A stretch of DNA of 38,154 bases from a virus: the IMG/VR virus record IMGVR_UViG_3300045988_064121, positions 1-38,154 of that record; one strand, 5' to 3'. The position numbers and the translations under genes were made by a program. Under the pieces are notes generated by a model. It was given only the letters and a program-made list of their open reading frames with translations. It was not told where the DNA came from and made no database searches. This document shows, in pieces, positions 34,519 through 34,594 of the stretch; the stretch's first letter is position 1; each line of letters begins with the position of its first letter.

Positions 34519-34594
34519 AGCAGGATAGAGCAGTAGTAGCTCGTCGGTCTTATTAGCCGAAGGTCGAATGGTGCAAATCCTTCTCCTGCAACCA
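34519..34594 (+). tRNA. Initiator-like tRNA with anticodon UAU (TAT at 34551-34553)
   Basis: Cloverleaf: acceptor A-GCAGGA / TCCTGC-A (1x72 unpaired), T8, D-stem GAGC/GCTC, anticodon stem TCGGT/GCCGA, loop CTTATTA, variable loop AGGTC, T-arm GAA(T)GG-TGCAAAT-CCTTC, A73, encoded CCA. Confidence 0.8.

Follow-up and report, generated by a model that had tools for sequence, protein, structure and literature searches.

The window analysed here, a stretch of 38,154 nucleotides of viral DNA (positions 1 to 38,154 of IMG/VR record IMGVR_UViG_3300045988_064121), encodes a transfer RNA (tRNA) at positions 34519–34594 that has the body of a bacterial initiator tRNA but the anticodon UAU instead of CAU, and it lies in a genome in which a set of genes begins with ATA. 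We put the probability at roughly 80% that this molecule is an initiator tRNA that reads AUA. It would be a second initiator, borne by the phage and probably descended from an ordinary bacterial or phage initiator by the change of the anticodon from CAU to UAU and of position 37 from A to U. The sequences themselves contain the initiator-type anatomy of the tRNA, its conservation, the ATA starts, the co-occurrence of the two, and an association between U37 and the A at position −1 of the start codon; from these we infer the expression of the tRNA, the amino acid that it carries, its formylation, its use in the ribosomal P site, and the dependence of the ATA-start genes on it. A sequence-only reading of the window had proposed an orthogonal AUA-reading initiator, and the comparisons with other sequences described below lend support to that proposal.

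The gene and the positions on which the argument turns are as follows.
34519–34594, + strand: tRNA of initiator type with the anticodon UAU and a CCA end in the gene, supported by ARAGORN, Rfam, the predicted fold, covariation, and matches to Escherichia coli (E. coli) tRNA-Met genes.
34551–34553, + strand: anticodon TAT (UAU), complementary to AUA, read from the sequence and by ARAGORN and invariant in all classes of the tRNA.
34554, + strand: U37, a pyrimidine where tRNAs nearly always carry a purine, invariant in classes A–D; its proposed partner is the A at mRNA position −1.
34519, + strand: A1, which lies opposite A72 (34590), a mismatch that marks bacterial initiators; flagged by cmscan and unpaired in 11 of 11 aligned sequences.

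The sequence of the gene, AGCAGGATAGAGCAGTAGTAGCTCGTCGGTCTTATTAGCCGAAGGTCGAATGGTGCAAATCCTTCTCCTGCAACCA, is 76 nucleotides long and includes the CCA end. ARAGORN identified it as the sole tRNA of the whole window and called it tRNA-Ile(tat), the Rfam tRNA model (RF00005) scored it at 49.1 bits (gathering score 29; E value 1.1e-7), and the minimum-free-energy structure given by RNAfold is a cloverleaf. At the acceptor end, A34519 lies opposite A34590, and this 1/72 position is the only non-standard acceptor pair flagged by cmscan; G2:C71, C3:G70, and A73 are all present. The D-stem is GAGC/GCUC with A11:U24, G26 is present, and the D-loop lacks GG. The anticodon stem UCGGU/GCCGA encloses the loop CUUAUUA, the variable loop is AGGUC, the T-loop is UGCAAAU, and the T-stem carries a single bulged U. 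The sequence-only reading had listed the cloverleaf with its encoded CCA, the initiator-type features (1×72, G2:C71, C3:G70, A73, A11:U24, G26, AGGUC, and the UAU anticodon), and the deviations from them (U31-G39, U37, the D-loop without GG, the TGCAAAT T-loop, and the bulged T); every one of these details is found in the sequence, and the ARAGORN check that it had suggested returned the gene at the same coordinates.

The nearest relatives of this tRNA are initiators. A blastn search of the 76 nucleotides against 5,426 complete E. coli genomes (E-value limit 10) yielded a median of four matching places per genome, the number of initiator genes in E. coli (metZWV and metY). Among the matches listed, 12 of 12 were tRNA-Met genes, with 76–78% identity over nucleotides 2–76, and the match that was inspected sits between argG and rimP, which is the metY position. 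Likeness to tRNA-Ile bodies was judged from these E. coli matches, of which the 12 listed are all tRNA-Met even at the permissive limit. Among GenBank phages, the sole annotated matches were genes annotated as tRNA-Met. We also compared the window tRNA with a set of 32 distinct tRNAs from the collected loci, which lacks the host's own initiator: bona fide CAU initiators from four phyla were 74–77% identical to it, whereas no elongator in the set exceeded 70% identity. The host flank contains two CAU tRNAs of elongator type, with G1:C72 and C11:G24, which were 56–64% identical to the window tRNA; one of them resembles tRNA-Ile2. The initiator-type body seen in the sequence alone is borne out by both the E. 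coli matches and these identities.

The family of the window was defined as 38 related viral contigs recovered by their portal protein (95–99% identity), and blastn located the tRNA region in about 34 of the 38, that is to say, in each contig that spans the locus. The tRNAs of this family and of lineages C and D fall into the following classes.
Class A: the window and 5 others; anticodon stem UCGGU/GCCGA.
Class B: about 28 contigs; A26, and the stem CUAGU/GCUAG, which has three fully compensated pair swaps relative to class A.
Class C: L170, L206, and L208–L213; acceptor stem as in the window, a canonical T-arm (GGAGG/UUCAAAU/CCUUC), and GG in the D-loop.
Class D: L185 and L207; acceptor stem CGCAAGG/CCUUGCA, a different T-arm, and a C1×A72 mismatch.

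The Rfam tRNA scores are 48.8 bits for class B, 56.5 and 52.4 bits for lineage C, and 56.5 bits for lineage D, and the T-arms of lineages C and D are fully canonical. In an alignment of ten phage variants with E. coli metY (11 sequences), 21 positions were tested as pairs; 20 of the 21 were essentially always paired, and 1/72 was unpaired in all 11 sequences. Changes on both sides occurred at nine pairs, compared with zero to two when the partners were slid by 1–3 columns. G2:C71, C3:G70, A11:U24, G30:C40, and A73 are invariant across the alignment, and the loop CUUAUUA is invariant among the phage variants. This pattern indicates that the stems are under selection that keeps the initiator marks. 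The tertiary contact between the D-loop and the T-loop (34532–34538 and 34572–34578) differs between classes by a double change, from A18 with G55 in class A to G18 with U55 in lineage C (L170/L212), and the T-stem bulge that accompanies the A18/G55 change has a variable base (U or C) or is shifted.

Set against the features that define tRNA-fMet, the tRNAs of the clade have (i) no Watson–Crick pair at 1:72, which is A×A in classes A–C and C×A in lineage D; (ii) invariant G2:C71 and C3:G70, the formyltransferase determinants, and invariant A73; (iii) invariant A11:U24, where elongators have Y11:R24 and the host elongators have C11:G24; and (iv) the minimal determinant G30:C40, in 11 of 11 sequences, while the surrounding pairs vary. 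Mutagenesis in E. coli revealed that initiator function needs no more of the G:C pairs than G30:C40, or even G30 alone, and au/GC/gu variants occur among natural initiators (PMC5389676). The anticodon, however, is UAU and not CAU in all clade members. We do not file the tRNA as tRNA-fMet, because it lacks both the CAU/Met identity and the strict set of three G:C pairs. With an elongator tRNA-Ile(UAU) it shares the anticodon, but not the paired 1:72 or the purine at position 37, which is invariably U. An elongator tRNA-Ile with a paired 1:72, which the sequence-only reading had named as the result that would overturn it, was looked for and not found; 1×72 is unpaired throughout. Of the IleRS identity set of E. 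coli (IleRS, isoleucyl-tRNA synthetase), the window tRNA has A35, U36, A38, and A73 and lacks C4:G69, U12:A23, and N6-threonylcarbamoyladenosine at position 37 (t6A37).

The second line of evidence is the start codons. All stop-to-stop open reading frames (ORFs) of the + strand were scored for Shine-Dalgarno pairing energy, and a strong Shine-Dalgarno sequence followed by ATA at 5–11 nucleotides was found for the first twelve genes below; two further ATA sites (33975 and 37069) are ambiguous, which gives a total of 12 to 14 of about 60 phage genes. At most sites, the ATA is the first to third codon past the upstream in-frame stop.
649–2052, + strand: portal gene, ATA; AAGGAGGT and then ATA 5 nucleotides on, the ATA being the first codon past an in-frame stop.
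2049–2858, + strand: head protein gene, ATA (ATAA overlap with the portal stop); profiles match from residue 2–3, and the first GTG is at residue 17.
3462–4070, + strand: structural gene, ATA; a profile aligns residues 4–198 with 4–193 of 197.
7630–8499, + strand: major capsid gene, ATA; aligned with homologues, and a profile aligns residues 3–288 with 3–294 of 297.
9428–9787, + strand: head-completion gene, ATA (ATAA overlap); Shine-Dalgarno sequence and profile, and the lineage D orthologue (57% identity) also has ATA.
10206–10712, + strand: tail-region gene, ATA; Shine-Dalgarno scan and profile.
11674–14253, + strand: tape measure gene, ATA directly past an in-frame TGA; profiles match from residue 7, and the next ATG, GTG, or TTG is 140 codons downstream.
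14250–15122, + strand: distal tail protein gene, probable ATA; GGAGGTG 7–9 nucleotides before the ATA (depending on where the motif ends), with an alternative TTG two codons later.
16150–16656, + strand: holin-like gene, probable ATA; AAGGAG 8 nucleotides before the ATA, and the sole upstream GTG lies inside the Shine-Dalgarno sequence.
19266–20720, + strand: endolysin gene, ATA; profiles match from residue 3–5, and the first ATG is at residue 30.
28418–28786, + strand: RusA-like resolvase gene of the early region, probable ATA; matched by a profile from residue 2 onwards, with no canonical start before residue 12.
29153–29893, + strand: replication-initiation (DnaD-like) gene, probable ATA; Shine-Dalgarno energy of −12.7 kcal/mol, and a profile aligns residues 2–98 with 2–99.
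33975–34169, + strand: small gene, ambiguous between ATA at 33975 and ATG at 33981; lineages C and D have the same arrangement.
37069–37410, + strand: small terminase gene, ambiguous between ATA at 37069 and ATG at 37045; the lineage D orthologue clearly has ATA.

Several observations show that these ATA codons are real starts. The distance from the ATA to the next canonical start is 31 codons in the portal gene, 16 in the head protein gene, 17 in the capsid gene, and 29 in the endolysin gene, besides the 140 of the tape measure gene. PHROG profiles begin at residues 2–7 of the ATA-started translations (from residue 22 in the portal protein, whose first canonical start is at residue 32), and as these matches lie upstream of any ATG, GTG, or TTG, the stretches that they cover must be coding. 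For the major capsid protein, the tblastn alignments with the capsid genes of two other phages, Eggerthella phage PMBT5 and Ruminococcus phage RG-TP1, begin at residue 1 of the product, and the annotated ATG starts of both coding sequences coincide with the window ATA in the alignment; the N-terminus is IPNQIALAKTYVSNLDEVYKLASVT (IPNQIAL...) in the window and MANSITKFKAYTSMLDEVYKLASLT (MANSIT...) in PMBT5. The lineage D capsid gene reads TGA-ATA-GCA..., giving IANSIALSKNYVDLLDEVYKK, and the stop codon directly before its ATA makes an upstream start impossible. The DnaD-like gene, for which a TTG six codons upstream is an alternative start, has the same ATA in the cousin L170. The integrase gene starts with ATG, and so do four host genes beside the prophage. 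The ATA starts at 2049, 9428, 14250, and 10206 overlap the preceding stop compactly, with ATAA in place of ATGA and TAATA in place of TAATG.

The start codons are also conserved as ATA. Among the relatives, the counts of ATA and ATG at the start position are 38 and 0 for the portal gene at 649 (which has ATA in lineages C and D as well), 38 and 0 for the head protein gene at 2049, 33 and 0 for the capsid gene at 7630, 31 and 0 at 9428, and 26 and 0 for the tape measure gene at 11674. At 3462 (16 and 4), 10206 (30 and 1), and 4321 (2 and 29; ATG in the window), ATA and ATG are swapped at the start position among relatives. A census of ORF-initial codons at Shine-Dalgarno spacing counted 12 ATA and 22 canonical codons in the window and 238 and 472 in the family; in 104 unrelated viral contigs (880 kb), 349 were canonical and ATA fell outside the 15 commonest classes, the fifteenth of which had 22 members. 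The curated gene list has 14 ATA, 39 ATG, 4 GTG, and 3 TTG starts, and ATA makes up 23% of the start codons compared with 1.15% of the internal codons. Shine-Dalgarno pairing is stronger on average at ATA starts than at ATG starts (−11.2 versus −8.6 kcal/mol; Mann–Whitney p = 0.001). The ORF scan, the profiles, the homologue alignment, and the relatives agree in indicating that the ATA starts are real, as the sequence-only reading had held when it pointed to many ATA codons placed behind Shine-Dalgarno sequences.

The tRNA and the ATA starts occur together. All clade members that span the locus have the tRNA, and all have ATA starts. Lineage C has ATA on the portal gene, the head protein gene, and other genes. 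Lineage D, whose portal protein is 61.5% identical to that of the window, whose 9428 orthologue is 57% identical, and whose nucleotide sequence and tRNA are 66–72% and 80% identical, respectively, has ATA on the portal gene, the capsid gene, the 9428 orthologue, and the regulator gene upstream of the tRNA. Its small terminase gene has ATA after an in-frame TGA, with a profile match from residue 2 (E value 2e-60) and the first ATG at residue 35. By contrast, more distant capsid homologues in contigs and genomes without this tRNA start with ATG. The co-occurrence that the sequence-only reading had suggested looking for in related prophages is found across the prophage clade of Holdemanella biformis (H. 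biformis), the host described below.

A third line of evidence links position 37 of the tRNA to the base before the start codon. In the window, A occupies position −1 at 14 of 14 ATA starts compared with 23 of 39 ATG starts (Fisher p = 0.0025), and the ATA starts listed for lineages C and D, together with the lineage D capsid start, all have A at −1. Hollerer and Jeschek (2023), working with about 45,000 mRNA variants and with initiators carrying A37 or the changes A37G and A37U, found that tRNAfMet pairs through its position 37 with the mRNA base at −1 and that the A37U variant favoured A at −1 (PMC10018350). The invariant U37 of the phage tRNA is thus complementary to the invariant A before the ATA starts. 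The relation makes sense only for an initiator in the P site, and U37:A(−1) would add a fourth pair to a weak codon–anticodon helix made up entirely of A and U. The A37 of E. coli tRNAfMet takes part in a base triple with G29:C41 (PMC2528185); the loss of A37 may explain, in our view, why the 29:41 pair varies freely between classes A and B.

We propose the following mechanism. The tRNA would be transcribed as a small unit of its own, which lies between the late-regulator gene and the genes for packaging. It would then be aminoacylated, most likely with isoleucine by IleRS, because methionyl-tRNA synthetase depends on C34. The host formyltransferase would recognise it through the unpaired 1×72, G2:C71, C3:G70, and A11:U24; IF2 would carry it to the P site of the 30S subunit; and G30:C40 would support the transition to the 70S complex. 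There it would pair with an AUA lying 5–11 nucleotides after a strong Shine-Dalgarno sequence, and U37:A(−1) would make the signal effectively A-AUA. At least 12 genes without an ATG, GTG, or TTG start would in this way be translated, with portal, head, capsid, tape measure, tail, holin-like, endolysin, resolvase, and replication functions. A broader picture, which we offer tentatively and hold to be somewhat less probable than not, is that of a natural orthogonal system with a four-base A-AUA start and probably formyl-isoleucine, in which virion, lysis, and some replication genes depend on the tRNA and a private start codon gates the lytic functions or frees them from the supply of host initiator and from defences aimed at it. 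A strict timing switch for late genes was rejected as the sole rationale, the early resolvase, the replication protein, and the lineage D regulator all using ATA.

The alternative that survives best, although we regard it as unlikely, is an elongator tRNA-Ile(UAU) that supplies rare AUA codons, the ATA starts being read by the host fMet-tRNA(CAU) either inefficiently or by virtue of strong Shine-Dalgarno sequences. It would accommodate the ARAGORN call of tRNA-Ile(tat) and the stronger Shine-Dalgarno pairing at ATA starts, but it leaves unexplained the restriction of these starts to phages that carry the tRNA and the constant A at −1. The anatomy is also at odds with it: 1×72 stays unpaired in each lineage while other acceptor pairs co-vary, A11:U24 stands in place of the elongator Y11:R24, and U37 excludes the t6A37 and the purine-37 stacking expected of an elongator that reads ANN codons. 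The closest relatives, among the listed E. coli matches and in the 32-tRNA set, are initiators and not Ile or elongator Met tRNAs, and the host flank already has an elongator-type CAU tRNA resembling tRNA-Ile2. Codon usage favours the elongator, as ATA makes up 16% of the internal Ile codons of the phage (123 codons) compared with 1 of 93 (about 1%) in four genes of the host; codon supply is the conventional interpretation of prophage tRNA-Ile(CAU/UAU) genes (PMC10688831), and the ATA use of the phage fits it. As to reading by the normal initiator, AUA reached 0.02–3% of AUG in E. coli in vivo (bioRxiv 10.1101/063800), which is too low for a major capsid gene, yet ATA heads the genes of the most abundant virion proteins. 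In an in vitro system whose initiation region had been optimised, the ordinary initiator used AUA mRNA as well as it used AUG mRNA (PMC5499595), so that some initiation at ATA does not strictly need a dedicated tRNA.

This in vitro result, the internal ATA codons, and the conventional view of prophage tRNA-Ile genes weigh against an AUA-reading initiator, as do the following: (i) the three G:C pairs of the initiator anticodon stem (29:41, 30:40, and 31:39) are not all present, the stem being GC/GC/UG in classes A, C, and D and AU/GC/UG in class B, and 31:39 is Y:R and not R:Y; (ii) the class A T-arm is odd (G55 and a one-nucleotide bulge) and its D-loop lacks GG; (iii) ARAGORN detects the tRNA in only 6 of the 38 relatives and never calls class B, although gene absence was rejected as the cause, given that blastn and Rfam show a detection failure for class B; (iv) the comparison set lacks the host's own initiator; (v) lone C34-to-T copies of ordinary initiators arise sporadically without any surrounding system; and (vi) a low-G+C viral contig, L067, has a tRNA(UAU) that derives from an initiator and shares the anticodon stem, yet its packaging and head genes start with ATG only.

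Still less probable is a dual role, in which the tRNA initiates at AUA and also elongates weakly at AUA codons inside genes or, through a U34:G wobble, reads AUG. One genome does present both demands, with its 12–14 ATA starts and its 123 internal ATA codons, and an unmodified U34 can wobble with G. In E. coli tRNAfMet, however, the 1×72 mismatch and formylation exclude initiators from EF-Tu, and the phage tRNA strictly keeps this EF-Tu-excluding mismatch. Least probable is that the tRNA plays no part in translation, being a relic (a decaying copy or what is left of an attachment site) or a decoy that soaks up a nuclease directed at initiators, and that the ATA starts are unrelated to it: the abnormal T-arm (G55, bulge), the D-loop without GG, the class B tRNAs missed by ARAGORN, the mutated or truncated TAT initiator copies in unrelated genomes, and the lone TAT copy in a large gut phage with CAT-bearing relatives would suit it, but nine compensatory changes, a loop and identity positions that are invariant down to 80% tRNA and 61% portal identity, and the canonical T-arms of lineages C and D do not, the tRNA is not an attachment-site remnant because the prophage integrates next to SseB, and the anticodon/start-codon and U37/A(−1) matches would both be coincidences.

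We return to the proposed AUA-reading initiator and to its spread. When the viral collection was scanned for the tRNA with U37, this clade alone turned up (37 contigs). Nine scattered matches in bacterial genomes were single-mutation copies or fragments of ordinary initiators and were treated as background. A full-length initiator tRNA copy with the anticodon TAT lies in an Arsenophonus endosymbiont genome (L012:4492–4568), and a Lentimicrobiaceae metagenome-assembled genome (L007 and L011) contains repeated 3′-half fragments that come from an initiator-like tRNA with TAT and look like remnants of integration sites. A loose scan for independent origins (initiator-type D-arm plus TAT) gave more than 100 matches, mostly due to chance, and L121 was rejected as an independent origin, being a singleton with a C34-to-T change and five relatives with CAT. 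This C34-to-T change occurs in a 76-kb gut phage, whose five closest relatives have the same tRNA with CAT and A1×A72. A group of gut phages of 50–106 kb encodes an initiator-type tRNA(CAU) with A1×A72, with TAT in one contig alone (L214:12411–12484 versus L215–L218 and L220); phage-encoded CAU initiators with the A×A mismatch thus exist, and they are plausible ancestors of the UAU tRNA.

In L067, L082, L084, L133, and L004, ATA starts were not found in the DNA examined. The L067 tRNA(UAU) (L067:915–990) has the anticodon stem of lineages C and D, but position 37 is A and U1 pairs with A72; in this contig ATG starts the genes for the small and large terminase, the portal, the protease, and the capsid. 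In L004, a 62-kb contig with 62% G+C, an initiator-like tRNA(UAU) with G1.U72 adjoins a tRNA-like gene (L004:9462–9534, − strand) for which ARAGORN reports a two-base "anticodon" (ga). An independent second origin outside the Holdemanella phage clade was not demonstrated in the viral-collection and bacterial-genome scans.

The genome of the window is that of a temperate, siphovirus-type phage of about 38 kb with 33% G+C. The large terminase gene is split by the window ends, with the C-terminal part at 7–645 and the N-terminus at about 37406–38154, where ATGATG overlaps the small terminase stop; the window is therefore a permuted whole phage genome. A megablast search with both window halves found no close GenBank phage relatives, so the context was taken from metagenomic contigs. 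Exact copies of the integrase gene occur in metagenomic contigs, adjoining bacterial NanE-TldD-PmbA-SseB genes (L201:1–5027 and L202), and the flanking TldD and NanE are identical to NCBI entries of H. biformis (Erysipelotrichaceae), which identifies the phage as a prophage of H. biformis, a human-gut Firmicute. The integration site is downstream of NanE-TldD-PmbA-SseB, next to SseB. A host tRNA cluster (Ser, two elongator-type CAU, Pro, and Arg; L201:55–515) lies about 4.5 kb upstream of the integrase gene, beyond those host genes.

The gene order around the tRNA is SSB, a small gene, a sigma-70 region-4-like regulator, a hairpin with a T-run, the tRNA, a terminator-like hairpin, DUF6275, a ParB-like gene, an accessory radical-SAM gene, small terminase, large terminase, and portal. 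The order of the regulator followed by the tRNA is also found in lineages C and D. The elements flanking the tRNA are as follows.
34166–34492, + strand: sigma-70 region-4-like regulator, a weak assignment (Pfam Sigma70_r4, E value 0.009; NCBIfam and PHROG sigma-factor models).
34479–34501, + strand: hairpin and T-run 3′ of the regulator; the scan lists the hairpin at 34479–34495 on the − strand only, and the + strand terminator with T6 is a reading of the sequence.
34504–34512, + strand: possible extended −10 element (TGtAATAAT), a reading of the sequence that would put the transcription start at A34519.
34678–34696, + strand: terminator-like hairpin downstream of the tRNA, from the terminator scan.

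As the hairpin and T-run would terminate the upstream regulator transcript, the tRNA would form a separate unit. The consensus promoter scan, which requires a −35 element, called no promoter for the tRNA, and the extended −10 reading fails in lineage D. No phage-encoded formyltransferase, synthetase, or tRNA-modifying enzyme was found among the window genes. The neighbouring radical-SAM gene was rejected as a helper; it is a PA0069/Rv2578c-like accessory gene that is missing from many relatives. The accessory slot that holds it (35618–36925, between the ParB-like and small terminase genes) varies when compared across L174–L181, with radical-SAM in the window, a QueT-family transporter in L179, and a protein with a faint ABC_tran match in L181. 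In the early region, a type II hammerhead ribozyme lies between small ORFs (25422–25488, + strand; RF02276, 39.4 bits versus a gathering score of 37), and it is identical in prophage copies from other samples (L201:8184–8250 and L203:3345–3411).

To our knowledge, all characterised cytoplasmic initiator tRNAs have the anticodon CAU, and non-AUG starts are read weakly by the same tRNA. In the full-text literature, a body that leaves most subscription journals outside its coverage, we came across no natural initiator tRNA, whether phage or bacterial, described as dedicated to AUA. As far as we know, the phage tRNA would be the first natural initiator to break the CAU/AUG rule. If so, it would constitute the first natural reassignment of a start codon by a dedicated tRNA and a start-side counterpart of the recoding of stop codons by phages. 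It would bear on whether bacterial proteins naturally start with an amino acid other than methionine, on the minimum number of the three G:C pairs that an initiator needs, and on the natural relevance of the pairing between position 37 and mRNA position −1. Gene callers limited to ATG, GTG, and TTG shorten or miss ATA-start genes, the window tape measure losing its 140 codons, and for synthetic biology the tRNA would offer a naturally evolved orthogonal pair of initiator and start codon.

Among known systems, the closest in structure is bacterial tRNA-fMet (E. coli metZWV and metY), which shares the unpaired 1×72, G2:C71, C3:G70, A11:U24, G30:C40, and A73, as well as C32, U33, A38, the variable loop AGGUC, and the T-loop UUCAAAU of lineage C, with about 76% identity overall. 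The phage tRNA differs from it by having UAU and not CAU, U37 and not A37, one or two of the three G:C pairs, a U.G pair at 31:39, and A (classes A–C) and not C at position 1; it is encoded by a phage beside the host initiator and is probably not charged with Met. Engineered initiators resemble it in principle, a new anticodon on an initiator body starting translation at the complementary non-AUG codon, orthogonally to AUG. Older constructs of this kind read amber (CUA) or carried GAU. Two preprints describe GAC and GAA variants and i-tRNA-AAC (bioRxiv 10.1101/2021.05.25.445580 and 10.64898/2025.12.21.695813). All of these are laboratory constructs, whereas the phage tRNA is natural, conserved in a clade, and associated with a dozen native genes and with the U37/A(−1) relation.

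In the "quadruplet" pairing of position 37 with mRNA position −1 (PMC10018350, and earlier chloroplast work cited there), position 37 is likewise complementary to the base before the start codon. That study reported a modest effect with overexpressed mutants, whereas in the phage U37 is natural and invariant and A stands at −1 at all ATA starts seen. Mitochondrial tRNA-Met(f5CAU) also makes AUA a start codon (PMC2655697 and PMC11775629). A single mitochondrial tRNA-Met, with its C34 modified, however serves both AUG and AUA, in initiation as well as in elongation, whereas the phage would use a separate, genomically encoded UAU tRNA for initiation beside the AUG system. With elongator and prophage tRNA-Ile (PMC10688831) the phage tRNA shares the UAU anticodon, the prophage location, and a phage genome richer in ATA than its host. 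Its initiator body, unpaired 1×72, A11:U24, U37, and tie to ATA starts set it apart from them. Finally, phage suppressor tRNAs recode stop codons for phage genes and are, like the UAU tRNA, phage tRNAs that alter the reading of a punctuation codon in the phage's own genes. Suppressors act on stop codons in the A site during elongation, whereas the UAU tRNA would act on a start codon in the P site.

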